Of a stretch of DNA of 38,963 bases, positions 2,908 through 38,963 are shown one piece after another. The stretch lies in IMG/VR virus record IMGVR_UViG_3300025528_000014, positions 1 to 38,963 of that record, one strand, 5' to 3'. Numbering within the stretch: position 1 is the stretch's first letter; the number at the start of each line of letters is the position of its first letter. A program made the translations under genes and the position numbers. A model generated the notes under the pieces. That model searched no databases and was not told the DNA's origin. It was given only the letters and a program-made list of their open reading frames with translations. The DNA is from a virus.

Positions 2908-2953
2908 AAAGATAGAAAGAGAGAACAAAAACAACTAAACGGAGGTAATGAAG

Positions 2954-3112
2954 ATGTATACAATCAAGTGGCAAGAGTTCGACCGAAATGACAGATTAAT
3001 TACCAAAATGAAGGAATTTAAGACAGAAGAAGCCATGGCGAAGTTCATCGACAAGTTGTTCAAAAAGGATAGTTTTTATCAAGTGTTAGCTACTAGCAAT
3101 GAAGGGAGGTAA
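2954..3112 (+). CDS. Small hypothetical protein (52 aa, absent from the ORF track)
   Basis: Hand-translated as MYTIKWQEFDRNDRLITKMKEFKTEEAMAKFIDKLFKKDSFYQVLATSNEGR. GGAGG lies 8 nt upstream. The stop TAA overlaps the next ATG (TAATG). Confidence 0.55.
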   Translation: MYTIKWQEFDRNDRLITKMKEFKTEEAMAKFIDKLFKKDSFYQVLATSNEGR

Positions 3113-3306
3113 TGAAAGTGAAAATCCATGTATACGGAAAAAACAAGCCGATGTTGAGAGGGTTTGACAAAGACGGGAATTACAAAGAGTTTAGAACAGC
3201 AAGTTATTCGGGACATAGGATAGCAAAAAGTTTGATCGAAGCACAAAAGTACATCCAAGATTTTCTCAAACGGGATTGGGATGTACAGATCGAAGTAGAA
3301 ACATAA
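3112..3306 (+). CDS. Hypothetical protein
   Basis: 64-aa ORF. GGGAGG RBS inside the upstream gene end. AT-rich. Confidence 0.5.
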   Translation: MKVKIHVYGKNKPMLRGFDKDGNYKEFRTASYSGHRIAKSLIEAQKYIQDFLKRDWDVQIEVET

Positions 3307-3371: not shown

Positions 3372-3402
3372 CCTATCATAAACCATAGGGAGGATAATTT
3401 CA

Positions 3403-4239
3403 ATGAACGTCTACAAAATTGTCACCGACCGGATCATCGCAAAGCTGAAACAGGGCGTTGTGCCGTGGCGTAAACCGTGGGTGAATGGGCAACCGCCGGT
3501 GGCTGTTAACTGGACGACGCAAAAACCGTACCGGGGCATTAACCAATGGTTGCTGGAGCCGGGCGAGTACGCCACCTTCAAGCAGATTGCCGAAGCCGGC
3601 GGCCGGGTGAGGAAGGGCGAGAAAGCCCAGATCGTGGTCTTCTGGAACTGGATCGAAAAGGAAGACGAAGAAACCGGCGAGGTCGAAAAAATCCCGTTCC
3701 TGCGATACTATAACGTCTTCGAGATCAACACGCAAGTGGAGGGGTTACAGAGCAAGCGAAAGCCGGTTCAGACGTTCGACCATGATCCCATCGAGGCTGG
3801 TGAGAAGATCGTCAGGGGATACGCTGACTGTCCGGAAATTCGGTATGCTTCGGGTCGGGCATACTACCACAAGGCGCTGGACTATATCGTCGTGCCGCCG
3901 CTGATTGACTTCCCGAATCCGAACGAGTTTTATTCGGTGCTGTTCCACGAGATGGTCCACAGCACGGGTCACCCGGACAGGCTGAACCGGAAAGGGGTTG
4001 CGATACCCGCCGCTTTCGGCGACAAGGATTATAGCAAGGAAGAACTGGTCGCCGAGCTGGGCGCCGCGATGCTGTGTAGTCTGGCTGGGATCGAGGACGC
4101 GACGATCAACAACAGTGCGGCGTACATTCAAAACTGGCTTGAACAACTTGGGAATGACTCGAAGCTGATCGTTTACGCCGCCGCACAGGCACAGAAAGCG
4201 GTGGACTATATCACCGGAAACCAATATCAAACCGAATGA
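3403..4239 (+). CDS. ArdC-like antirestriction protein (N-terminal ssDNA-binding DUF1738-type domain plus zincin metallopeptidase domain)
   Basis: N-terminal ITDRIIAKLKQGVVPWRKPW and YRGINQWLL match the ArdC-N pattern. HEMVHSTGH is an HExxH zinc motif. Confidence 0.8.
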   Translation: MNVYKIVTDRIIAKLKQGVVPWRKPWVNGQPPVAVNWTTQKPYRGINQWLLEPGEYATFKQIAEAGGRVRKGEKAQIVVFWNWIEKEDEETGEVEKIPFLRYYNVFEINTQVEGLQSKRKPVQTFDHDPIEAGEKIVRGYADCPEIRYASGRAYYHKALDYIVVPPLIDFPNPNEFYSVLFHEMVHSTGHPDRLNRKGVAIPAAFGDKDYSKEELVAELGAAMLCSLAGIEDATINNSAAYIQNWLEQLGNDSKLIVYAAAQAQKAVDYITGNQYQTE

Positions 4240-4242
4240 CGG

Positions 4243-4265
4243 ACGCCCCTAACGGGGCGTTTTTT
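4243..4265 (+). terminator. Rho-independent terminator
   Basis: ACGCCCC / TAAC loop / GGGGCGT followed by TTTTT, immediately after the ArdC-like stop codon. Confidence 0.75.
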
Positions 4266-4289
4266 AATATAAATCAAGGAGGAAGAAAA

Positions 4290-4811
4290 ATGGTCAAAGT
4301 CTATTGCGCGTATGATGAAATGGTTGACATTACAAAGCTGGTTCCGAATCCGAGAAACCCGAATCAGCATTCAGATAAACAGATCGAACTGCTTGCAAAG
4401 ATCATCGAACATCAAGGTTGGCGCGTACCGATCACGGTTTCAAAACGTTCGGGCTTCGTTGTGCGTGGCCATGGTCGCTTGCAGGCGGCTGAAATTTTGG
4501 GAGTAGAAAAGGTCCCGGTCGATTATCAAGATTACGCAAGCGAAGCAGAAGAATGGGCTGATTTGATCGCGGATAATAGGTTGTCTGAGTTATCTCATAT
4601 GGACAATCAGATGCTGAAAGATTTGATACAAGAGATTGATTCAGGCGAAATTGATTTGACTTTGACAGGATACGATGAATCGGAAATAGAACGTCTTATG
4701 ACGCAACATTTTGAAGCGCCTGATGAGTTTGAAATGCTCGATGTGGATGATATAGAGACAGAATACAGATGTCCGAAATGTAATTATGAATGGAGTGGCA
4801 AACCGCGATGA
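4290..4811 (+). CDS. ParB-like nuclease (ParB/Srx N-terminal) domain protein
   Basis: AAGGAGG RBS. LVPNPRNPNQHSDKQIELLAKIIEHQGWRVPITV...VVRGHGRLQAA is the typical ParBc core. A CxxC pair lies at the C-terminus. Confidence 0.75.
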   Translation: MVKVYCAYDEMVDITKLVPNPRNPNQHSDKQIELLAKIIEHQGWRVPITVSKRSGFVVRGHGRLQAAEILGVEKVPVDYQDYASEAEEWADLIADNRLSELSHMDNQMLKDLIQEIDSGEIDLTLTGYDESEIERLMTQHFEAPDEFEMLDVDDIETEYRCPKCNYEWSGKPR

Positions 4812-5899
4812 AGCCTGAATATAGAGTTCCTAGCATGAAGGAGATCGAGCAGATTCCGCATAACGGTTTTAATGTGGTATCGACTTTTAGCGGTTGCGGC
4901 GGTTCGTGTTTGGGGTATCGCATGGCAGGCTACAAGGTGCTTTACGCGAATGAATTCATTCCAGCGGCGCAAGAAACGTATAAGGCAAATCATCCGGAAA
5001 GTTATTTGGATACCCGTGATATTCGAACTGTTCAGCCGGAAGATATTCTGGAAATCACCGGATTGCAAAAAGGAGAACTGGACATATTCGATGGTTCCCC
5101 GCCTTGCGCTTCCTTTTCGACAGCAGGAAAACGAGAAAAAGGCTGGGGTGAAGTGAAAACATACTCGGATACAAAACAGCGTGTCGATGACTTGTTTTTT
5201 GAGTATACGCGCTTGCTTCGCGGGCTTATGCCGAAGGTGTTCATTGCCGAGAACGTCAAGGGGTTGGTGCTTGGAACCGCAAAGGGTTATTTCAAGGAAA
5301 TTATGCGAGAATTGAAATCATGCGGTTACCGGGTAAAAGCAAGCGTGCTCAATGCAAAATGGTTAGGCGTTCCGCAAAACAGGGAGCGTCTTATTTTTAT
5401 CGGTGTGCGTGAGGATTTAAATATTGAACCCGTATTTCCAAAGCCGTTGCCCTATTTTTATACAGTCGAAGATGCATTTAAGAATCTTCCTGCTGAAAAC
5501 GAAGCACAAGCGCAAGAGTTAAGGGAAAGCGCCAAAAAATATATTAGAGGTTGGTATGGAGTATTAAAAAAAATCCCCAAAAATCCATCGAGAATAATTA
5601 AGGGAAGCGCAGTAAAAAACGGAAGTTACTTTAATCTATCGCGGTTGAGTTTTCTTCATCCGTCCGACACGATTTGCCAAACGAACGGACTCGCAAACGC
5701 TTCGGGTAACTGTCATCCAGCAGAGGATAGAAAATTGACTATATACGAACTCAAACGCATTTGTGCTTTTCCAGATGACTTCATATTGACGGGCACATTT
5801 GAACAACAATGGGAGCGCTTAGGACGAGCCGTTCCTCCTCTGATGATGCGAGAAGTCGCAAAAACGGTGGAGCGTGAAATTTTATGCAAACTAGTTTGA
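4808..5899 (+). CDS. DNA (cytosine-5) methyltransferase-fold enzyme with an atypical motif X (GRAVPP); candidate cytosine C5 carboxymethyltransferase
   Basis: Motifs seen: I FSGCGG, IV GSPPCASFS (Cys codon 5105..5107), VI ENVKGL, VIII QNRERLIFIG, IX RKLTIYELKRICAFPDDF, X LGRAVPP (Arg codon 5825..5827). ATGA overlap with the ParB-like stop. An alternative start is at 4790. Confidence 0.9.
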   Translation: MKPEYRVPSMKEIEQIPHNGFNVVSTFSGCGGSCLGYRMAGYKVLYANEFIPAAQETYKANHPESYLDTRDIRTVQPEDILEITGLQKGELDIFDGSPPCASFSTAGKREKGWGEVKTYSDTKQRVDDLFFEYTRLLRGLMPKVFIAENVKGLVLGTAKGYFKEIMRELKSCGYRVKASVLNAKWLGVPQNRERLIFIGVREDLNIEPVFPKPLPYFYTVEDAFKNLPAENEAQAQELRESAKKYIRGWYGVLKKIPKNPSRIIKGSAVKNGSYFNLSRLSFLHPSDTICQTNGLANASGNCHPAEDRKLTIYELKRICAFPDDFILTGTFEQQWERLGRAVPPLMMREVAKTVEREILCKLV

Positions 5900-6594
5900 A
5901 TCATGAACCGAAAACGGATAAATGGCAATTCGATGAAGAAGTAACCGCCGTATTCGATGATATGCTTGAGCGCAGTATCCCTGATTATTACAACATGCGA
6001 GAACTGGTGCATAAGCTGACGAAAAAATACGCAAGACCAAACACCGTCATTTTGGATTTGGGATGCTCGACTGGCGGTGCGATCAAAAAAGCGATCAACG
6101 AATTACCGAACAATTTTTTCATCGGCATTGAGGTTTCGGAGCCGATGCGTCAAAAAGCAAAAGATAATTTCAAGGGAATCGATCGGGTTGCAATTGTAAA
6201 TCATGATTTGAGAAACGGACTTCCAAAAATCGGGGAAAAAGTTAGTGTAATTTTATCTGTGTTGACGATACAATTTACGCCGATTGAATATAGGCTCAAT
6301 ATCATCAAGGATGTTTACAAAACGCTAGCCGACGGCGGCGTTTTTATTTTTGTCGAAAAAGTGCTTGGCGAAACGGCAGAAATTGACAATACGCTTGTTG
6401 AACTTTATTACGGGCTTAAAGGTGAAAACGGATATACACATGAGAAGATACAGAAAAAACGAAAGTCCTTAGAAGGCGTATTGGTTCCAGTTACGTCAAG
6501 CTGGAATATAGAACTTTTGCGAAAGTCCGGTTTTCAAAATATCGATTGCTTCTGGAGAAACCTTAATTTTGCCGGATATATTGCGATCAAGTAG
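5884..6594 (+). CDS. cmoA: CmoA-like carboxy-S-adenosyl-L-methionine (Cx-SAM) synthase homologue
   Basis: Collinear similarity to E. coli CmoA as I recall it: [25 protein letters not shown] vs [35 protein letters not shown] vs YDLGCSLGAA; LTIQF...GGVFIFVEK vs FTLQF...[27 protein letters not shown]...[11 protein letters not shown] vs NGYSELEISQKRSMLENV...CFNFGSLVALK. It overlaps the methyltransferase gene by 16 nt. Confidence 0.8.
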   Translation: [236 protein letters not shown]

Positions 6595-6612
6595 GAGGTA
6601 GGTGCTATGTGA

Positions 6613-7101
6613 ATGAGCAAAAAAGGAGGACGAAAAGGAAAATATCGTGAGTGGCTTACCGAGGAAGGTTTAACCAAATTAGAAGGCTGGGCGCGTGATG
6701 GCTTGACGGACGAACAGATCGCGCACAACATCGGCATAGCGACAGGAACACTCTATGAATGGAAAAACCGTTTCCCTGAAATAGATGAGGCCTTAAAAAA
6801 GGGGAAAGAAGTCGTCGACATTCAGGTCGAAAACGCGCTTTTAAAAAGAGCGCTGGGCTACTCCTACGAGGAAACAAAAGTTATCGTGGAAACGGACGGC
6901 AGAAAACGAGTGGAGCGCGTGCAAAAGCATGTTTTGCCTGACGTGACAGCGCAAATATTTTGGCTCAAAAACAGAAGGCCAGACAAATGGCGTGATAAGC
7001 ATGAGGTTGATTACGGTGATCGTGTACATGGAAATATACAAGACTACATCGCCGCGCTAAATGAAATTTCAAAGGACGTATGGAACGATGAAGCGGAATA
7101 G
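6613..7101 (+). CDS. terS: Terminase small subunit
   Basis: N-terminal HTH (GLTDEQIAHNIGIATGTLYEWKNRFPE). Size and position directly upstream of TerL. Confidence 0.8.
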   Translation: MSKKGGRKGKYREWLTEEGLTKLEGWARDGLTDEQIAHNIGIATGTLYEWKNRFPEIDEALKKGKEVVDIQVENALLKRALGYSYEETKVIVETDGRKRVERVQKHVLPDVTAQIFWLKNRRPDKWRDKHEVDYGDRVHGNIQDYIAALNEISKDVWNDEAE

Positions 7102-8347
7102 GGCTTCAGCGTTTGAATGGCACCCGTTCAGCCGAAAGCAAAAGCAATTGCTCACATGGTGGATGCCGAAAAGTCCGTACCGGGATTATGACATTGTGAT
7201 CAGTGACGGTGCAATCCGTTCCGGGAAGACGGTCGCCGGGATTGACAGCTTCATCACGTGGTCGCTTCACACGTTCCGGGGCCAGAACTTCATCATATCC
7301 GGGAAGTCCATCGGTGCGCTGAAACGGAATGTTCTGCGGCCCACGTTTCAGATGATGGCCGCGAAAGGGATTCCGTACCGCTACAACAGGTCGGAAGGCT
7401 ATATCGAGATCGGGAGTAATACCTATTACACGTTCGGGGCAAATAACGAGGCCAGTCAGGACGTGTTGCAAGGTTTGACGGCGGCGGGCGCATATGCGGA
7501 TGAAGTGGCGTTGTTTCCGCGTTCGTTCGTAGAGCAGATGATCGGTCGTTGCTCTGTCGAGGGATCAAAAATCTTCATGAACTGCAACCCGGCTGGGCCA
7601 TATCACTATATCAAAACGGACTATATCGACAGGGCCGAGGAAAAGAAAATCCTTCGACTTCACTTTACGCTCGACGACAACCTGACGCTTTCGGAGGAAA
7701 TCAAAGAGCGCTATCGCAGGATGTTCACCGGAGTGTTTTACCAACGGAACATTCTCGGCATGTGGGTGATGGCCGAGGGCGTTATCTATGATATGTTTGA
7801 CCGCGAGAAGCACGTCGTTCCGACGCGCCCGCGGCCTTATACGCAGTATTACGTGAGCATGGACTACGGCACCCAAAACCCGACGACGTTCGGGCTGTGG
7901 GGGCTGTTCAACGGTGTCTGGTATAAGGTCAAAGAATACCATTATGACGGCAGGGCGGAGGCCCGGCAGAAGACGGACGAGGAATACTACGAGGATTTGG
8001 TGGAGTTCGTGGGGAATCTGCCGATTCGCTCGTTGATCATTGACCCGTCGGCGGCGTCGTTTATTACGCTGGTGAGAAAAAAAGGCCGGTTCCATGTGCG
8101 AAAGGCCAAAAATGACGTGCTGGAGGGTATTCGGAACGTGGCGACCGCGCTGGCGACAGGCCGGATCAAATATAACGATTGTTGCAAAGAGACGTTCCGC
8201 GAGTTCGCTTCTTATGTCTGGGACCAGAAGGCGCAGGAGAAGCGCGGCGAGGATGCTCCGCTTAAAATGAACGACCACCATATGGATGCCGACCGTTACT
8301 TTGTGAACACGGTCGTGATGCGGGATTCCGCAATATCTTTCGCGTAA
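7088..8347 (+). CDS. terL: Terminase large subunit (PBSX XtmB-like)
   Basis: Walker A-like GAIRSGKT. About 420 aa and follows TerS. The start is either 7061 or 7088. Confidence 0.9.
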   Translation: MKRNRASAFEWHPFSRKQKQLLTWWMPKSPYRDYDIVISDGAIRSGKTVAGIDSFITWSLHTFRGQNFIISGKSIGALKRNVLRPTFQMMAAKGIPYRYNRSEGYIEIGSNTYYTFGANNEASQDVLQGLTAAGAYADEVALFPRSFVEQMIGRCSVEGSKIFMNCNPAGPYHYIKTDYIDRAEEKKILRLHFTLDDNLTLSEEIKERYRRMFTGVFYQRNILGMWVMAEGVIYDMFDREKHVVPTRPRPYTQYYVSMDYGTQNPTTFGLWGLFNGVWYKVKEYHYDGRAEARQKTDEEYYEDLVEFVGNLPIRSLIIDPSAASFITLVRKKGRFHVRKAKNDVLEGIRNVATALATGRIKYNDCCKETFREFASYVWDQKAQEKRGEDAPLKMNDHHMDADRYFVNTVVMRDSAISFA

Positions 8348-8360
8348 AGGCGGTGAGACT

Positions 8361-9842
8361 GTGCCGACGTTGACTGACGAAATCATTGAGATCATCGAAT
8401 CCGGGGCGAGCGGCGCCCTGACGATGGAGCAAATCATCAAGCTCGAAATCGACGAGTGGATGGCATCGAACGAGCGCCTTTTGATGCTGACCGGCCAGCG
8501 ATATTACGAGGGCGATGCGGACATTCTGGGCCGCAAGCGCATGGTCGTGGGCGAGGATGGGGAGCTGATCGAGGCCGAGAATCTTGCGAACAACCGTCTT
8601 GTTCATAACTTCGTGCGGAAATTGGTCGATCAGAAGGTCGGCTATCTGCTCGGGTTGCCGCTGACTGTCCAGACGACGAACGAGGAATACCAGAAGCGGC
8701 TGAACGAGATTTTCAATCGGGCGTTCCTGCGGATGCTCAAGAATCTCGGAAAAGAAGCCATCAACAAGGGAAAGGCGTGGCTTCACGTCTATTACAACGA
8801 GGATGGAGAGCTTAGCTTCAAAAAAATTCCCAGCGAGGAAATCATTCCACTGTGGCGCGACGCGGCGCACACGGAGCTTGACGCTGTTATCCGTGTATAT
8901 GAGGTTGAGACGTTCGACGGCCCGACGAAGAAGATCGTCACGAAGGTCGAGTTTTGGAGCAAGGAAGGCGTTCAGCGGTACGTTCTCGATTCGGGAATTC
9001 TTTACCCGGATGTGGAAGCGGGAGAGTACGCGCCGCATGTCATGCTTGATCGCGGTGACGGAAACGCGGAGGGCTACAACTGGGAGAGGATTCCGTTTAT
9101 CTGCTTTAAGTACAACGACGAAGAACAACCGCTCGTGAAGTTTGTGAAGTCGCTGGTCGATGACTACGACAAGCACACAAGCGATAACAGTAATAACCTT
9201 GAGGACTTGCCGAATAGCACCTATGTGCTTCGCAATTATGACGGAACTAATCTGGGCGAATTCCGTCGTAATCTTGCTATCTACAGGGCCGTGAAGGTGT
9301 CCGACGACGGCGGCGTGGACACGATCAACCTGAATATCAACGTCGAGGCCTCCGAGAAGCATTTGGACCGTCTGCGGAAGGACATCTACGAGTTTGGCCG
9401 GGGTGTGGACACGCAATCGGAGCGGTTCGGAGGCGACCGGTCGGGCGTGGCGCTCAAGTTCCTCTATGCTGATCTCGACATGGACGCCAATATCATCGAG
9501 ACGGAGTTTCAGGCGTCGCTGGAACAACTGCGTTGGTTCATCGACACGCACCTTGCGAATACGACCGGAGCCGATTATTCCGGTGAGCAGGTGGATTTCA
9601 TCTTCAATCGCGACATCATCATTAACGAATCCGATGTGATCAACAATGCGAAGTCCAGTGTCGGCATTATCTCGGACGAGACGATCATCGCAAACCATCC
9701 GTGGGTGACCAATGTTCAGTCCGAGCTGGAGCGCATTGAGGCCCAGCGCCAGCGTGATATGAACGCCTTCGAGAATTATCAAGGCTTCAGTGAACAGGGG
9801 CAGGCGCAAGAAGACGGCGCGCAGGCGGGCGAAACTGAATGA
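8361..9842 (+). CDS. Portal protein (SPP1 gp6-like)
   Basis: 493 aa, directly after TerL. GTG start with a GGCGGTGAG RBS. Acidic C-terminus. Confidence 0.85.
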   Translation: MPTLTDEIIEIIESGASGALTMEQIIKLEIDEWMASNERLLMLTGQRYYEGDADILGRKRMVVGEDGELIEAENLANNRLVHNFVRKLVDQKVGYLLGLPLTVQTTNEEYQKRLNEIFNRAFLRMLKNLGKEAINKGKAWLHVYYNEDGELSFKKIPSEEIIPLWRDAAHTELDAVIRVYEVETFDGPTKKIVTKVEFWSKEGVQRYVLDSGILYPDVEAGEYAPHVMLDRGDGNAEGYNWERIPFICFKYNDEEQPLVKFVKSLVDDYDKHTSDNSNNLEDLPNSTYVLRNYDGTNLGEFRRNLAIYRAVKVSDDGGVDTINLNINVEASEKHLDRLRKDIYEFGRGVDTQSERFGGDRSGVALKFLYADLDMDANIIETEFQASLEQLRWFIDTHLANTTGADYSGEQVDFIFNRDIIINESDVINNAKSSVGIISDETIIANHPWVTNVQSELERIEAQRQRDMNAFENYQGFSEQGQAQEDGAQAGETE

Positions 9843-24671: not shown

Positions 24672-26453
24672 ATGGACTTTGTGAAAAAGGAATGGCAGTT
24701 CCGGGATATCATCAGCGAGAACGAACTGAACCGGATGGAGGATGGGATCGAGGAAGGCATCACGAAAGCGGAGCAGGCGCAACAAACTGCAACTGACGCA
24801 CAAACTAATCTTGACAACCACGTATCTGCTATCACCGGCGTCCACGGCGCCACGTCAGCGGCAACACCGAACGCGATTGTTCAGCGGGATGCTGCGGGAC
24901 GGGCGAAGTTCGCGGCGCCTGTGGCTTCTGATGATGCGGCGCGGAAGCAGGATGTCGATGCGGTTGACAGCGCGGCCATGAAAAAGGTCGCAGACAGCGA
25001 CTTGGATATGAACGCTCGTTCCATCCGGAACTTGTTAACGCTGCACCTGAGAAACGCAACACCACTCACAATCTCCAACGGCGCCATCACCGTTACACAA
25101 ACCTATCACTCCGTCGATACGGAGGGTGGCGCTCCGACCGATGATCTCGACACGATCAATGGCGGGAACGTTGGGGATATCCTTGTACTACGGGGCGTAA
25201 CTGGCGCTCGTAAGGTAACGGTCAGACACGGAGTCGGAAATATATACACTTGTGATGGACAGGACGTTACCATTGATACAGGAAACCTGTCTATCATGAT
25301 GCTGCTTAAAATGAGTGCAACTCAATGGGTTGTGGTAGGTAATCCGGGCATTAAACGCACGGGCGACGCCATGAGGGGTCCGCTCTCTATGGGAGGGTAT
25401 CGGATTACTGATCTTGCCGCGCCGACAAATGCAAATGACGCGGCGCGGAAGGCGGAAGTGGATGCTATCACCACAGAAAAAATAAACACCACCGCGTATA
25501 GACCTGCTACAGAGGACGGTTCCACATACCCGATTGGTGTCACTTCTTTCGCCGTGACCAACGGATTGTCCGATGGGTGGCCGCAAGATGCGGGGGTTGT
25601 ATCGACGACCAGACTTTCTGACTATCGGTGCCTTCAGATTTTCATGGCATCTGCTACGGGTTCTCATAATGGCCGTGTTTATGTAAGGTCATGGCGTATT
25701 GATATTGGATGGAGTAACTGGCGCCGTCAATGGGACGACCGAGAAATGGGGGCAGGAAGCGGCCTCGACGCGGACCTGTTGCACGGTAGACAACCCAGCA
25801 CGTCTGCAACGGCAAATACGATTGTTCAGCGTGATTCCTCTGGACGTGCGAAGTTCGCGGCGCCTGCGGCTTCTGATGATGCGGCACGGAAGGCGGAAGT
25901 GGATGCTCACGCGAACCGCACCGACAACCCACACGCGGTCACGAAGTCGCAAGTCGGTCTTGGAAACGTGCAAAATTATGGCATCGCTTCGCAGGCTCAG
26001 GCGGAGGCCGGATCGGCTAACAACGTGTACATGACGCCGCTTCGTACAAAACAAGCGATTGACCAGTTTGTACCTATCGAAACCGGTTCGTGGACACCGG
26101 ATTTGCGATTCGGTGGGTCTAATGCAGGTATAACCTACAATTACCGAGCGGGGACGTACATCCGGATAGGAGATGTTGTGTATTGGGCAGTTAGAATAGG
26201 AATATCGTCAAAGGGAAGTGCATCGGGAGTCGCCGCGATAAACGGTCTGCCCTTTAGCGGCATCACCAGTTTCGCATTTTATCATAGTATTGGTGTTGCG
26301 AGAAATATTACCTTACCGAGTGGCCAATGGTTTTCAAGTTATATTGCGAATACGGCGATAAATTTGATGACAAACAACGGCACGAGCGTATTAACAAGCG
26401 CAGATTTTTCAAACAATAGCTCAATTGATGCAAGTGGCTTTTACTTTATTTGA
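24672..26453 (+). CDS. Tail fibre protein with internal repeats
   Basis: About 593 aa. N-terminal WQFRDIISENELNRMEDGIEEG. Repeated IVQRD..GRAKFAAP.ASDDAARK..VDA blocks. Confidence 0.8.
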   Translation: MDFVKKEWQFRDIISENELNRMEDGIEEGITKAEQAQQTATDAQTNLDNHVSAITGVHGATSAATPNAIVQRDAAGRAKFAAPVASDDAARKQDVDAVDSAAMKKVADSDLDMNARSIRNLLTLHLRNATPLTISNGAITVTQTYHSVDTEGGAPTDDLDTINGGNVGDILVLRGVTGARKVTVRHGVGNIYTCDGQDVTIDTGNLSIMMLLKMSATQWVVVGNPGIKRTGDAMRGPLSMGGYRITDLAAPTNANDAARKAEVDAITTEKINTTAYRPATEDGSTYPIGVTSFAVTNGLSDGWPQDAGVVSTTRLSDYRCLQIFMASATGSHNGRVYVRSWRIDIGWSNWRRQWDDREMGAGSGLDADLLHGRQPSTSATANTIVQRDSSGRAKFAAPAASDDAARKAEVDAHANRTDNPHAVTKSQVGLGNVQNYGIASQAQAEAGSANNVYMTPLRTKQAIDQFVPIETGSWTPDLRFGGSNAGITYNYRAGTYIRIGDVVYWAVRIGISSKGSASGVAAINGLPFSGITSFAFYHSIGVARNITLPSGQWFSSYIANTAINLMTNNGTSVLTSADFSNNSSIDASGFYFI

Positions 26454-27309: not shown

Positions 27310-27519
27310 ATGCTGATAAAGTGGTTGAAAGCGGCGGGCATACGAGCCGCCCGGACTGCCGCCCAAGCGGCGCTGGCGGCTATCGGCTCCGCAACAATGT
27401 TTGGCGAAGTGGATTGGCGTGTGGTGGGAAGCACCGCCCTGTTGGCGGCTATTGCAAGCATCCTTATGAGCATCACAGGCCTGCCGGAAGTCGAAAAGGA
27501 CGAAGCTGATGGGGAATGA
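27310..27519 (+). CDS. Holin (LL-H-family-like)
   Basis: AAGGAGAG RBS. RAARTAAQAALAAIGS...VDW...ALLAAIASILMSITGLPE is the typical pattern. Confidence 0.7.
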   Translation: MLIKWLKAAGIRAARTAAQAALAAIGSATMFGEVDWRVVGSTALLAAIASILMSITGLPEVEKDEADGE

Positions 27520-28043
27520 AAATCGTCATTGATGTTGCAAAAACTAAAGGAAAAATACGACGAGAGTGTCTTCATTGTAAAAAGGAATTTTACGTCTACC
27601 CTTCGCAAGCAAAGAGGGGTGGGCGTTTTTGTTCTACCAGTTGTACAACAACATATCGAAATTTAACAGATAATCCAGCAAAGCGCCTAGAAGTCAGACG
27701 TAAGATTAGCGATAATCATGCTGATGTTTCCGGGAAAAACAATCCGATGTATGGAAGAAAACCACCCAGCTACATTGATGGCCGTTCATATTTCTCGTCT
27801 TATTACAGAATGGTTGCATTAAAAGATCGACCGCCTATTTGTGAAAAATGCGGAATTGAAGTAAATAGGTATCGTTTGCATGTTCATCACATTGATCGAA
27901 ACAGAGAAAACAATGTACCTGAAAACCTTATGATATTGTGTGCAAAATGCCATTTTGATGAACACAAAGAATCGCATCTTTCAAGACCAAGAGATAGATT
28001 TGGAAGATTCACTAAGGAGGAAAAATCCAAATGCGTATTGTAA
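27516..28043 (+). CDS. HNH homing endonuclease
   Basis: Zn-finger-like CLHCKKEF...FCSTSC, then HVHHIDRNRENNVPENLMILCAKCHFDEH (HNH core). AT-rich. Confidence 0.85.
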   Translation: MKIVIDVAKTKGKIRRECLHCKKEFYVYPSQAKRGGRFCSTSCTTTYRNLTDNPAKRLEVRRKISDNHADVSGKNNPMYGRKPPSYIDGRSYFSSYYRMVALKDRPPICEKCGIEVNRYRLHVHHIDRNRENNVPENLMILCAKCHFDEHKESHLSRPRDRFGRFTKEEKSKCVL

Positions 28044-32685: not shown

Positions 32686-33386
32686 TGGTCGAGATCAGGC
32701 CGTTGGCATCCGGGAGCGCTGGGAACTGCTACCATCTCACCGATGGTAGCACTCCCCTACTTCTGGAGTGTGGAATCCCGTTCAAAGAAATCCGACGGCG
32801 GCTGAATTTTCGTACTTCGGACGTGTCCGCATGTCTGGTAACGCATGAGCATCAGGATCATTGCATGGCTCTGGATGATGTTCTGCGGGCCGGGATCGAC
32901 GTGTACGCCTCGAAAGGCACGATTGAGGCTGTGGGGATCACCCACCACCGTCTGCGGCCTGTGGAGGCACGCAGGGCGGTCAGAATCGGCACATGGAACG
33001 TCATGCCGTTCGAGACGGAGCATAACGCGGCGGAACCGCTCGGGTTCCTGATGGCTAGCAAGACTGGCGAGAAAGTGCTGTTTGCCACGGACACTTACTA
33101 TCTCCGCTATCGGTTCTGGGGACTGACGCACATCATGATCGAGTGTAACTATTCTCGAGATGTGCTTCGTGAGAATGTGGCGGCTGGCGTGGTTCCGAGG
33201 ATGCTGGCCCGGAAGGTGCTTCGGGCGCACTTCTCGTTGGAAAACGTTAAAGATTTCTTCCGGGCGAACGACTTGAGCGCAGTACAAGAAATCTGGCTCA
33301 TTCACCTGTCGGATCGGAATGCTGACGCGGAGAGGTTCAAACGTGAGATACAGGCCGTGACCGGCAAACCGGTTTATATCGCGTGA
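32682..33386 (+). CDS. MBL-fold metallo-hydrolase (probable recombination exonuclease partner)
   Basis: HEHQDH motif. Coupled to recT. Confidence 0.8.
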   Translation: MMVEIRPLASGSAGNCYHLTDGSTPLLLECGIPFKEIRRRLNFRTSDVSACLVTHEHQDHCMALDDVLRAGIDVYASKGTIEAVGITHHRLRPVEARRAVRIGTWNVMPFETEHNAAEPLGFLMASKTGEKVLFATDTYYLRYRFWGLTHIMIECNYSRDVLRENVAAGVVPRMLARKVLRAHFSLENVKDFFRANDLSAVQEIWLIHLSDRNADAERFKREIQAVTGKPVYIA

Positions 33387-33400
33387 AAGGGGCGGCTGGT

Positions 33401-34357
33401 ATGTCAGGGTGGATCAAAGACTATCGCAAGGAACTGGAAAGCGACATCTGGATGATGCCGCCCCTGTATCACCGCGTGTGGCAGTATCTCAAGTACATGG
33501 CGAACCACGCACCGACTAAATTCCCAATGTCCGATGGGACGTTCTTTGAAATCGGTGTAGGCCAGCATCTGACGTCTATTCGGAAGATTGCGAAGGGCGT
33601 TGCGTGGATGGAAGGGCGGGAATATCACGAGCCGAACCCGAAGACGATTCAAAAAATATTGCTGTGGTTGGAGCGCATGAATATGATCCGCATAGATCGC
33701 GGAAGGGGTAACAGGGAATACACGCTCATAACCATTGTAAATTGGGCGTTTTATCAGGCTTCGGATGAGGAAGGGGTAACAGCTAGTACCACAGCTAGTA
33801 CCACACCTAGTACCACAGCTAGTACCACAGCTAGTGGATATAAACAAGAATATATAAAGAATGATAAGAATGAAAAGAAGAATAAAGATACTAATATCCT
33901 TACGGATATTAGTATCGTTGACACTCCTTCCGAAACCGAATCCGAACCTGAACCGAAACCGAAGTTTGGAGACGATCATGAAGCGACTATGCTGACCCGT
34001 CTACTGGCAAAGCTGATGCTCCAGAACAATCCAAATGCGCGAATACCGAAAGTGGAGAAGGACGCGCAAAAGTGGATCGCCGAAATGGAGCGCATACACC
34101 GGCTGGACGGTTACAGTTACGACGAGATCAAGCAGGTCATCATTTGGTGCCAGAACGACGAGTTTTGGAAGGCAAACATCCTTTCGACGAAGAAGTTGCG
34201 CGAGAAGATGCCGACGCTGGTGTTGCAAATGAGACGGAAAGGAAACCAACCGCAGGGACGTTCTCAGTCACGGTATGAACGGACTGTGAGCGTGCTGGAC
34301 AGGCTGTATCGGGAGGCTGAAGAAAGTGAACAGGCAGGAAGTCATCAAGCTCATTAG
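33401..34357 (+). CDS. Replication initiator / replisome organiser with an internal origin
   Basis: Position upstream of the helicase loader gene. Iterons, an AT-rich tract and a palindrome lie inside the gene. An alternative GTG start is at 33383. Confidence 0.6.
   Translation: MSGWIKDYRKELESDIWMMPPLYHRVWQYLKYMANHAPTKFPMSDGTFFEIGVGQHLTSIRKIAKGVAWMEGREYHEPNPKTIQKILLWLERMNMIRIDRGRGNREYTLITIVNWAFYQASDEEGVTASTTASTTPSTTASTTASGYKQEYIKNDKNEKKNKDTNILTDISIVDTPSETESEPEPKPKFGDDHEATMLTRLLAKLMLQNNPNARIPKVEKDAQKWIAEMERIHRLDGYSYDEIKQVIIWCQNDEFWKANILSTKKLREKMPTLVLQMRRKGNQPQGRSQSRYERTVSVLDRLYREAEESEQAGSHQAH
33781..33836. repeat. Iterons: 4.6 tandem copies of a 12-bp unit A(G/C)CTAGTACCAC
   Basis: Read directly: agctagtaccac twice, acctagtaccac, agctagtaccac, then the first 8 nt (agctagtg) of a partial fifth unit. 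Confidence 0.9.
33887..33916. repeat. Perfect 13-bp inverted repeat GATACTAATATCC / TTAC / GGATATTAGTATC
   Basis: Read directly. It lies immediately after an AT-rich tract of about 50 nt. Confidence 0.9.
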
Positions 34358-36610: not shown

Positions 36611-37009
36611 ATGTATCGCGGAAAGCGGAAAGATACCGGCGAATGGGTGTATGGGTATTTGATCGGCAAAGACGTTATTGTCGGTGACATCGTGGAGTTC
36701 TGCGAAGAATACTTCAACTGCGAATACTGGTGGCGCGTCGATCCCAAAACCGTGGGTCGATACATCGGCGAACATGACAAGAAAGGTGTAGATGCTTATG
36801 AGGGGGACATCGTAAAAGGGCATGTCCTCAATTGCGAGACAGGACGGTATGTTAATTTCATCGGCGTGGTCAAATTTCGTAACGCTGCTTACGTACTCGA
36901 TGGATATAGCAAATACTTGAAAGCAAAAAGATACAACGAGAAATTTTATCGATCGTTCGAAATCATCGGCAACATCCATGACCACCCCCATCTGCTGAAA
37001 GGAGCCTAA
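36611..37009 (+). CDS. YopX-family protein (copy 1)
   Basis: YRGKRKDTGEWVYGY...VDPKTVGRYIGEHDKKGVDAYEGDIV...IIGNIHDHPHLL. Confidence 0.8.
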   Translation: MYRGKRKDTGEWVYGYLIGKDVIVGDIVEFCEEYFNCEYWWRVDPKTVGRYIGEHDKKGVDAYEGDIVKGHVLNCETGRYVNFIGVVKFRNAAYVLDGYSKYLKAKRYNEKFYRSFEIIGNIHDHPHLLKGA

Positions 37010-37012
37010 AAC

Positions 37013-37402
37013 ATGCGTCAATATCGCGGACGAATCAAAGATAGCACCGTATGGGTTTACGAATATTACATCAAAAGCCCGCTAGGTATTGCAAGGATAT
37101 GGTCGCCTATCACAAAGGATAACGGTGAGTCGTATTTGTATGACTACGTTGTCGATCCCGAAACCGTGGGGCAATCGACCGGCCTGAAAGACAAGAACGG
37201 ACATGAAGCATATGAAGGCGATATTTTCGTGGATTTGACAGACGGTTATTGCTGGAGCATCGCATACATGGACGGGTATTACTGTGCAATAAGCGGTGAT
37301 GAAACCCTGATGTTGCATGAGTTTTTGGAAAACGGAAAGCTTGACGCTGAAATCATCGGCAACATCTATGAGAACCCGAGATTATTGGAGGGACGAACAT
37401 GA
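37013..37402 (+). CDS. YopX-family protein (copy 2)
   Basis: YRGRIKDSTVWVYEY...VDPETVGQSTGLKDKNGHEAYEGDIF...IIGNIYENPRLL. Confidence 0.8.
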   Translation: MRQYRGRIKDSTVWVYEYYIKSPLGIARIWSPITKDNGESYLYDYVVDPETVGQSTGLKDKNGHEAYEGDIFVDLTDGYCWSIAYMDGYYCAISGDETLMLHEFLENGKLDAEIIGNIYENPRLLEGRT

Positions 37403-37685: not shown

Positions 37686-37964
37686 ATGATATGGTTGACG
37701 CTCAAAAGCAACGGAAATCCAATCTATATAGCGCCTGAAAACATTACGGCTATCTGTGACAACAAAGAAGGCGGAGCAGAAGTATATTCCGGTCACGACT
37801 TTACGCTTGTCCGAGAGACAGCCGCCGAAGTCGCCCGCAAGGTTTTGGAGTGGCGGTTGGAAATGGAAGCGTACAAGCAATCCGTACTTGGAAACAATTT
37901 CAATATATCGGCAGATTGTGCTTCGAGGTTGCGACTTCTGGCTGGATTGGAGGAACCGGCATGA
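37686..37964 (+). CDS. Hypothetical protein
   Basis: ATG follows AAAGGAGA. 92 aa. Confidence 0.5.
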   Translation: MIWLTLKSNGNPIYIAPENITAICDNKEGGAEVYSGHDFTLVRETAAEVARKVLEWRLEMEAYKQSVLGNNFNISADCASRLRLLAGLEEPA

Positions 37965-38356
37965 GCATAGACGGACTCAAAAGAGAGCAAGTGTTGGCCA
38001 TGAAGCCGGGTCGCTTACTGGATGCGCTGGTGGCGGAATATATTGTCGGAATGAAAGAACACAGAAAGGCATATCCAGAATCATTTGATGAACGAGTCAT
38101 ATGGTTTCGTAATCCGCCAAATGTAACAGCGTACTACGTACCGTTTTATTCCACCGACATATCCGCCGCATGGGTAGTGGTTGAGATGTTTTCGTACATC
38201 GACATTCATAGGTATGACGACTTCTTTGCGTGTGCGATCTATCCGATTGGTAGTTCTGCGGTGATCCGCGCTCGTGGAAAAACAATGCCCGAAGCTATCT
38301 GCAAAGCCGCCCTTCTGACGGTGATGGATGGGGAGGATGAACATGAACGCGATTGA
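37961..38356 (+). CDS. Phage ABA-sandwich-domain-like protein
   Basis: LLDALVAEYIVGM...STDISAAWVVVE...MPEAICKAALL is the characteristic pattern. ATGA coupling to the upstream gene. Confidence 0.55.
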   Translation: MSIDGLKREQVLAMKPGRLLDALVAEYIVGMKEHRKAYPESFDERVIWFRNPPNVTAYYVPFYSTDISAAWVVVEMFSYIDIHRYDDFFACAIYPIGSSAVIRARGKTMPEAICKAALLTVMDGEDEHERD

Positions 38357-38666: not shown

Positions 38667-38963
38667 CACCGAAAAGAAGATCGCGGAGATTCGGAAATCG
38701 GCTGAAGAAGCACGGAAAACCGATAGATCGTGGGTTGACGGACAAGATTATGCCGATGACGTCGAGTTCCTGCTGGACGAGTTGGAACGGGAGCGCGCCG
38801 CGCATAACGCGCATGTGGCGGAGTTGTGCGAGTTGGTAAAAGAAAACCGGAAACTGCTGGAGGAACGGGACGAGGCAAGAAGTAAAGCAGAGGAAGCGTG
38901 GAAAGAGATTGACTCACTGGAAGAACAACTCCTATCCTCCCAACAGGAGATTGAGCGGTTGCG
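38659..38963 (+). CDS. 5' part of the junction-spanning coiled-coil hypothetical protein (continues at 100..277 on the circle)
   Basis: ATG 38659. The ORF stays open to the window end and is in frame with the ORF ending at 277. Confidence 0.7.
   Translation, partial: MTDTEKKIAEIRKSAEEARKTDRSWVDGQDYADDVEFLLDELERERAAHNAHVAELCELVKENRKLLEERDEARSKAEEAWKEIDSLEEQLLSSQQEIERL
38865..38963. repeat. Terminal direct repeat, copy 2 (identical to 1..99)
   Basis: Base-by-base identity with 1..99. Confidence 0.95.

Follow-up and report, generated by a model that had tools for sequence, protein, structure and literature searches.

A ParB-like–CmoX–CmoA gene cassette, predicted to carboxymethylate cytosine, in a contractile-tailed phage with Bacillota-type genes

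Why would a phage carry a homologue of CmoA, a carboxy-S-adenosylmethionine (Cx-SAM) synthase, in a reading frame that overlaps a DNA cytosine methyltransferase gene? The question is raised by positions 4808-6594 of the IMG/VR virus record IMGVR_UViG_3300025528_000014, which was analysed over its whole length of 38,963 nucleotides (hereafter the window). The proposal made in an initial annotation of this DNA was that Cx-SAM comes from the CmoA homologue and is used by the methyltransferase-fold enzyme to carboxymethylate C5 of cytosine. The proposal was supported by the CmoX signatures of the first protein, the CmoA residues of the second and the precedent of Synechococcus phage S-B43, and the gene pair is almost certainly a predicted CmoA–CmoX system, in which Cx-SAM would be made and its carboxymethyl group then put on cytosine of the phage DNA. 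Very probably, the pair belongs to a ParB-like–CmoX–CmoA cassette without a ligase, such as Yang et al. (2025) described, which a complete contractile-tailed phage of ~38.9 kb with a Bacillota host has acquired horizontally and carries where its late/packaging genes begin. The novelty implied by the initial annotation did not hold, as the CmoA–CmoX system was already in print in December 2025 (Yang et al., Nat Commun 2025, PMC12783734); the window is a further example of it and no discovery.

In phage S-B43, CmoA converts S-adenosylmethionine (SAM) and prephenate into Cx-SAM, while CmoX, a C5-methylase homologue, uses Cx-SAM only and produces 5-carboxymethylcytosine (5cxmC) at GpC sites, to which the ligase CmoY adds glycine (PMC12783734). 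The pathway was demonstrated biochemically, structurally and in virion DNA, with protection from HhaI, and the crystal structure 8YF3 shows Arg350 of the S-B43 enzyme (SpCmoX) holding the Cx-SAM carboxylate where M.HhaI has Asn304 (PMC12783734). The survey in the same paper, in which CmoX was recognised by SPPC and a motif-X Arg, counted 5,615 CmoX, 4,257 CmoA, 2,251 ligase and 1,660 ParB-domain neighbours (PMC12783734). The glycine amide is the only native-phage form found so far.

The CmoX-type gene (4808..5899, + strand), encoding a DNA cytosine C5-carboxymethyltransferase homologue of 363 aa, lies in an open reading frame (ORF) of 4790..5899 (+), whose ATG at 4808, in frame, shares the ATGA of 4808-4811 with the stop codon of the gene upstream and is the start used by independent metagenome gene calls. 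The product matched PF00145 over profile positions 1-322 of 324 (E 2.3e-61, Pfam) and the TIGR00675 dcm profile with 189.6 bits (cutoff 100.65), and motifs I (FSGCGG), IV (SPPC), VI (ENV), VIII (QNRER), IX and X (GRAVPP) were readable, in agreement with the complete C5-cytosine methyltransferase fold reported in the initial annotation. Its top match in the PDB was 8YF3 (E 8e-82, 278 bits), with M.HaeIII at 116 bits, and it was 43% identical to SpCmoX, 58% to gp123 of Streptomyces phage TurkishDelight and 51% to the homologue of Moraxella phage Mcat8.

As the alignment to the 8YF3 crystal structure has this identity and E-value, it fixes the residue correspondences. The SPPC of motif IV (S97-P98-P99-C100, including the catalytic Cys nucleophile; 5096..5107, +) aligned with S95-P96-P97-C98 of SpCmoX and formed an invariant column set, and Arg340 of the motif X GRAVPP (CGA codon, 5825..5827, +) aligned with SpCmoX R350 (GRMVPP). 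The Arg340 column is Asn in ordinary methylases, namely N304 in M.HhaI (GNSV; numbering C81/N304 checked) and the Asn of motif X GNAVP in M.HaeIII. Both published CmoX signatures are present in the window protein, and the Asn of Dcm/M.HhaI-type 5-methylcytosine (5mC) enzymes is absent. The Cx-SAM contacts F25, E47, F48 and D69 of SpCmoX, which touch the adenine and ribose of the cofactor, correspond to the invariant F27, E49, F50 and D71, and all SpCmoX cofactor-contacting residues named in PMC12783734 are kept.

The CmoA-type gene (5884..6594, +; 236 aa), a carboxy-SAM synthase homologue, starts within the end of the CmoX gene (stop codon 5897-5899), and the 16-nt overlap given in the initial annotation (5884-5899) was confirmed from the open reading frames. 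The collinearity with CmoA throughout, also claimed there, was seen both in TIGR00740, the CmoA equivalog profile, which covered positions 11-239 of 239 (E 8.8e-47, 159.8 bits), and in end-to-end alignments to the Escherichia coli and Haemophilus influenzae CmoA structures 4GEK and 1IM8 (E ~1e-30). PHROG 4752 was common to the window protein (252 bits, 8.5e-75) and the biochemically validated S-B43 enzyme, SpCmoA (239 bits). A check for the loss of Cx-SAM-binding residues found the carboxylate-binding Arg retained, R193 (codon 6460-6462) being aligned with R199 of E. coli CmoA, reported as the sole side chain contacting the Cx-SAM carboxylate (PMC4482062); the same column held Arg in 112 of the 120 closest homologues of the window protein (regex pattern count). 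In a MAFFT alignment, this column held Glu in SpCmoA (L004 3443-4138) and Mcat8 and Ala in TurkishDelight (the other two loci being L005 7581-8363 and L006 5052-5702), and an Arg was found four residues further on in SpCmoA and TurkishDelight, which may represent a shifted carboxylate contact.

The first gene of the cassette (4290..4811, +) encodes a ParB-like protein of 173 aa (ParB N-terminal/Srx-fold), recognised from PF02195, PHROGs and context. The PF02195 match was under the gathering score (E 5.5e-05) and the match to the Spo0J N-terminal domain 6SDK was weak, while PHROG matches were found to 498 (a ParB-methyltransferase fusion profile, matched in its N-terminal part; 4e-43) and 620 (8e-40). 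The most likely start is 4290, as in the metagenome calls, rather than the first ATG at 4236, since a hairpin is followed by a strong AAGGAGG ribosome-binding site (region 4275-4292) and then by ATG 4290. The stand-alone ParB-like proteins adjoining CmoX share a C-terminal CPxCGYxW motif, conserved in at least 90% of 72 sequences, and carry a degenerate box (GHGRLQA in the window) in place of the CTP-binding GERRxRA box of ParB.

The distribution of these genes was followed by scanning IMG/VR with a CmoX alignment, which yielded 80 loci with CmoX 49-67% identical to that of the window. SPPC was present in all 80 and the motif-X Arg in 78, and CmoX was immediately preceded by a ParB-like homologue in about 75 of the 80 viral contigs, as well as in phages Mcat8 and TurkishDelight. 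The order ParB-like, CmoX, CmoA (P-X-A) was the commonest (32/80), and the window cassette is an ordinary member of this largest gene-order class of the published family. Where the flanks were long enough (n = 34), CmoA was found at 33 loci, ParB at 34, a ligase (CmoY-type or asparagine-synthetase-type) at 18 and CmoA without a ligase at 15; the neighbourhood survey for cmoA-dcm pairs suggested in the initial annotation thus returned CmoA at 33 of 34 well-flanked CmoX loci. The ligase of relatives was always inside the cassette (orders PXYA, PYXA and PXNA). That the ligase-less P-X-A order is the commonest class suggests that such a cassette works without a ligase.

CmoA without CmoX was rare among the surveyed loci. 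The two variants without the Arg carried Asn (L071, GNSVPP) and Leu (L082, GLSVPP), neither with CmoA in the available sequence: none was found within ~8 kb downstream in L082, and the L071 contig ends ~0.6 kb downstream and so says little. Three loci with the Arg had no CmoA within 5-8 kb, namely L008 and L009, the closest CmoX relatives (67% identity), and L083; these possibly rely on host Cx-SAM. Contigs with CmoA relatives showed the ParB-like/CmoX/CmoA trio, some beside Gram-positive-type endolysins and ArdC-N genes, and ArdcN genes lay near the cassette in L090 and L091. The cassette was located upstream of the terminase also in Mcat8, L024, L066, L069, L086 and L088. The cultured phages that possessed the trio included Mcat8 (directly upstream of the terminase) and TurkishDelight (plus a ligase), and a large protein collection held more than 3,100 CmoA-like and more than 7,600 CmoX-like proteins. 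A scan of IMG/VR with the CmoA protein alone returned no relative, exact peptide words being absent there. Separately, about 50 Erwinia/Dickeya/Yersinia jumbo phages (~260 kb) carried a CmoA homologue near 12 kb, and about a dozen partly overlapping jumbo phage records encoded, near 28-34 kb, a protein matching CmoX residues 100-359 only; the two genes are not adjacent in the jumbo phages.

What the cassette lacks is informative because the assembly is complete. The window carries an exact 99-nt terminal direct repeat (1-99 and 38865-38963), an independent 16.5-kb contig (L001) spans its end junction, and the assembly, circular or circularly permuted, is complete at ~38,864 bp, so that absence from the genome is meaningful. 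Pfam scans covered 54 ORFs (likely-gene + strand ORFs of at least 90 aa, five minus-strand ORFs and one of 54 aa) and returned no match to CmoB or any further methyltransferase, and none to Asn_synthase or an AMP-forming ligase; tblastn with the amide ligases SpCmoY and TurkishDelight gp124 gave hits at E > 0.4 only. No tRNA genes were present in the window genome, and the statement in the initial annotation that it holds no CmoB-like or other tRNA-modification gene therefore stands for these scans. With no amide ligase of either the CmoY or the asparagine-synthetase type in the complete genome, the end product is predicted to be bare 5cxmC, which is then likely to be the final base in the DNA of this phage.

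The best phage matches of TerL, the tail sheath and the endolysin were all to Bacillota phages, with 67% identity between TerL and its counterpart in Aeribacillus phage AP45 and 56% between the tail sheath and those of Brevibacillus phages. From just these three best matches, we infer a Bacillota host. No near-identical phage turned up among 50,697 phage records when 3400-8400 was searched by megablast, a CmoX scan of genome contigs for prophages retrieved merely a fragment in a Caulobacter metagenome-assembled genome and no host assignment, and the supplement of PMC12783734 contained no host or Bacillus information. Bacillus subtilis lacks cmoA and cmoB and makes 5-methoxyuridine (mo5U) with TrmR (PMC6158493), and such a host would explain why the phage brings its own synthase. 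The initial annotation had argued in this way for Bacillus-type hosts; the Bacillota-like phage genes and the B. subtilis gene content agree with it, but its generality is reduced by MccS, a CmoA homologue found in the microcin C cluster of some Bacillus strains (PMC10491745).

Three other explanations were weighed. The first holds that 5cxmC is an intermediate whose carboxyl is derivatised further, to an amide or ester, by an unrecognised phage or host enzyme, so that the final base could not be predicted from the cassette. About half of the related loci do possess a CmoY-type or asparagine-synthetase-type ligase, virion DNA of S-B43 contained the glycine amide only (PMC12783734), and several window ORFs have no family match; against this stand the lack of any ligase homologue by tblastn or Pfam in a complete genome, the position of the relatives' ligase within the cassette and never elsewhere, and the rank of the ligase-less P-X-A order as the commonest class, which together make the idea improbable.

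The second takes CmoA mainly as a drain on host SAM, or a source of excess Cx-SAM, that would disable type I/III restriction, BREX and SAM-AMP signalling in the manner of SAM lyases, with DNA carboxymethylation being secondary. The authors of PMC12783734 discuss it as a question still to be answered, the kcat of SpCmoA is tenfold above that of E. coli CmoA, and the cassette adjoins another anti-restriction gene, ArdC. Yet the CmoA frame overlaps a transferase with a Cx-SAM-specialised cofactor pocket, the gene stands at the head of the late/packaging block, away from early host-takeover genes, and CmoA seldom occurs without CmoX in the surveyed loci. As the principal role, SAM depletion is very unlikely; as an addition to carboxymethylation it is possible and compatible with the CmoA–CmoX pathway, although it leaves the specialised transferase unexplained.

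The third, an ordinary orphan Dcm-like SAM methylase (5mC) beside a methyltransferase of tRNA or small molecules that has no connection with it ("tRNA (cmo5U34)-methyltransferase"), is scarcely credible: relatives are named "DNA (cytosine-5)-methyltransferase 1" and "tRNA methyltransferase" in the sources and PHROGs, and the second protein matches the generic Pfam families Methyltransf_25/12/31/11 and falls below the CmoA equivalog cutoff, but motif X has Arg instead of Asn, as it does in SpCmoX, of which the wild type took Cx-SAM only and the R350N mutant worked with neither cofactor (PMC12783734). Moreover, CmoA carboxylates SAM and is no methyltransferase, the genome is without CmoB and tRNA genes, the Arg-type methylase and CmoA are nearly always adjacent over hundreds of phage contigs, and the non-Arg variants go without CmoA in the available sequence, the L071 contig being too short to inform.

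A number of observations nevertheless weigh against the CmoA–CmoX pathway as predicted here. The phage is represented by metagenome assemblies only, and some Bacillus strains do carry MccS. Identity of the window CmoA to the E. coli and S-B43 enzymes is only 29-32%, and its 159.8 bits are below the NCBIfam TIGR00740 cutoff of 193.3; as the validated SpCmoA scores still lower on this profile (115.6 bits), the cutoff excludes true phage enzymes, and the sub-threshold score is hardly an argument against function. Several ORFs without family assignment (33383..34357, 24666..26453) could hide an unrecognised further-modifying enzyme. Identity to SpCmoX falls from 51% in the catalytic core to 31% in the target-recognition region of CmoX (residues 200-303), and palindromic 6-bp sites, including GpC sites, are strongly avoided, which long-term full protection of GpC would not predict.

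The last two points concern the target sequence. Because the target-recognition region is just 31% identical, GpC specificity is not to be assumed, although GpC is a possible target of the window CmoX; if so, there would be 2,933 sites, or ~28% of all cytosines in the window. Over the whole window (1-38963), 285 palindromic 6-bp sites were observed compared to 641.5 expected under a maximal-order Markov model, the median observed/expected ratio was 0.41 for palindromic and 1.00 for non-palindromic hexamers, and no site was found for CCCGGG, CTGCAG, CAGCTG, AGATCT, GAGCTC, CGTACG or TGCGCA. Palindromes of 6 bp with and without GpC were depleted equally, and 4-base palindromes with and without GpC were not separable. 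Since GpC-containing and GpC-free sites are equally depleted, the phage would rely on site avoidance besides the predicted modification. The avoidance can be reconciled with GpC protection if the island was acquired recently, as its composition supports.

This island spans 4263-7101: the GC content at third codon positions (GC3) was 0.42-0.48 for the ParB-like, CmoX, CmoA and TerS genes and 0.70-0.72 for ArdC, TerL and portal. Downstream of CmoA lie the small terminase gene (TerS; 6613..7101, +; PHROG 309 at 1.3e-67) and the large terminase gene (TerL; 7061..8347, +), the product of the latter being that with 67% identity to AP45. The cassette seems to have been acquired by horizontal transfer together with or beside terS. 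On the other side, an ArdC-like anti-restriction protein (ArdcN plus zincin MPTase-PolyVal domains by Pfam; GC3 0.72) is encoded at 3403..4239 (+), and right after its stop codon the consensus scan found a terminator-like hairpin (4241..4262, +; GGACGCCCC-TAAC-GGGGCGTTT followed by a T run) with a 9-bp stem including 6 G-C pairs. This putative terminator marks the upstream edge of both the cassette and the low-GC island. The ArdC-like gene is probably a separate transcription unit, and its membership in the cassette was ruled out by the terminator-like hairpin together with the sharp change in composition. Thus, the setting described in the initial annotation, a low-GC island just upstream of the packaging genes with ArdC-like and ParB-like genes nearby, was recovered from GC3 and gene positions, except that ArdC, with its normal composition and the hairpin behind it, does not belong to the unit. 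Two small ORFs at 2948-3306 are likewise low in GC.

Compared to S-B43, the window has the same combination of a CmoA-family Cx-SAM synthase homologue with an SPPC/motif-X-Arg enzyme, and neither has CmoB. The two differ in the predicted base, since the window is without CmoY (5cxmC versus 5-glycylcarboxymethylcytosine, 5gcxmC), in gene order (ParB-like–CmoX–CmoA with overlapping frames versus CmoA–CmoY–CmoX, with no ParB within 5 kb of CmoX) and in the carrier (a ~39 kb Bacillota-type myovirus versus a 214 kb cyanomyovirus). The proteins have diverged as well: identity amounts to 43% over the whole of CmoX, 31% within its target-recognition region and ~30% for CmoA, and the window CmoA has the R199-type Arg where SpCmoA has Glu. 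Mcat8 and many IMG/VR and metagenome contigs carry the three genes in the order seen in the window, in many cases just before the terminase. In this group, which includes TurkishDelight, CmoX is 51-67% identical to that of the window and the ParB-like proteins are homologous; its members are known from sequence alone, annotated as hypothetical proteins or methyltransferases. TurkishDelight differs from the window by an added asparagine-synthetase-type ligase, and the hosts are also different, being Gram-negative Moraxella for Mcat8 and actinobacterial Streptomyces for TurkishDelight.

The E. coli CmoA/CmoB pathway to 5-carboxymethoxyuridine at tRNA position 34 (cmo5U34) shares with the window the CmoA fold and length, the DLGCS(T/L)G SAM motif and the Arg at R199 (R193 in the window), with 29% identity between the two CmoA proteins and the window protein below the NCBIfam equivalog cutoff. 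The acceptor enzymes differ, as CmoB acts on the oxygen of tRNA 5-hydroxyuridine 34 (ho5U34), whereas the window encodes a DNA C5-methylase homologue predicted to act on C5 of cytosine. The engineered M.MpeI N374K (Wang & Kohli 2021), as described where it is cited in PMC12783734 and PMC13288465, uses Cx-SAM and makes 5cxmC. By these accounts, the same motif-X position was changed from Asn to a basic residue, although M.MpeI N374K has an engineered Lys, is CpG-specific and needs E. coli CmoA, whereas the window has a natural Arg and a co-encoded synthase.

All recognisable genes of the window are on the + strand. Its packaging, head and tail genes include an SPP1-type portal, Mu-F, a scaffold, a capsid, a contractile tail with XkdN/YqbQ-type modules and a baseplate, and further genes encode an Amidase_3 endolysin, RecT, a G39P-like loader, a dUTPase and two YopX proteins. 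The YopX-family paralogues (132 and 129 aa) stand in tandem at 36611-37402, and a Phage_ABA_S domain protein comes after them at 37850-38356. An HNH endonuclease gene (27516-28043) directly precedes the Amidase_3 endolysin gene, within a patch of low GC, and HNH genes also adjoin the endolysins beside the cassette in L090 and L091.

Taken in sequence, the proposed mechanism would begin with translation of the ParB-like, CmoX and CmoA genes as a coupled unit through their 4-nt and 16-nt overlaps. CmoA would then convert host SAM and prephenate into Cx-SAM, of which the host probably makes none. By the usual covalent Cys mechanism, CmoX would flip the target cytosine out of double-stranded phage DNA, Cys100 of SPPC would attack C6, and beta-elimination would release 5cxmC and S-adenosylhomocysteine (SAH). 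The synthesis of Cx-SAM and the transfer of its carboxymethyl group by the window pair are assigned from homology and conserved residues. The final base would likely be 5cxmC itself, versus the glycine amide in S-B43, and DNA so modified would be shielded from restriction enzymes whose sites hold the target cytosine. The cassette runs straight into terS/terL, which would fit late-gene expression and the modification of replicated DNA about to be packaged.

A broader proposal reaches further and is put forward tentatively, being rather doubtful as a whole: bare 5cxmC would be terminal in virions of the P-X-A class, in a Gram-positive host without Cx-SAM, and the ParB-like protein would be a third component that, for example, loads CmoX onto the phage DNA or targets it there.

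The pathway derived from the raw sequence in the initial annotation is the published one, which validates that reading but leaves the pathway without novelty. The modest addition made by this instance is a small, complete phage genome of Bacillota type with a minimal, ligase-less cassette. Compact natural CmoX enzymes with other specificities also have practical appeal for labelling and sequencing DNA by carboxymethyl-based chemistry (PMC13288465). For the biology of the family, the window phage is a good candidate system for unamidated 5cxmC as a natural end product, and it may reveal whether a phage CmoA is strictly required in hosts without Cx-SAM, and what role the ParB-like partner plays.

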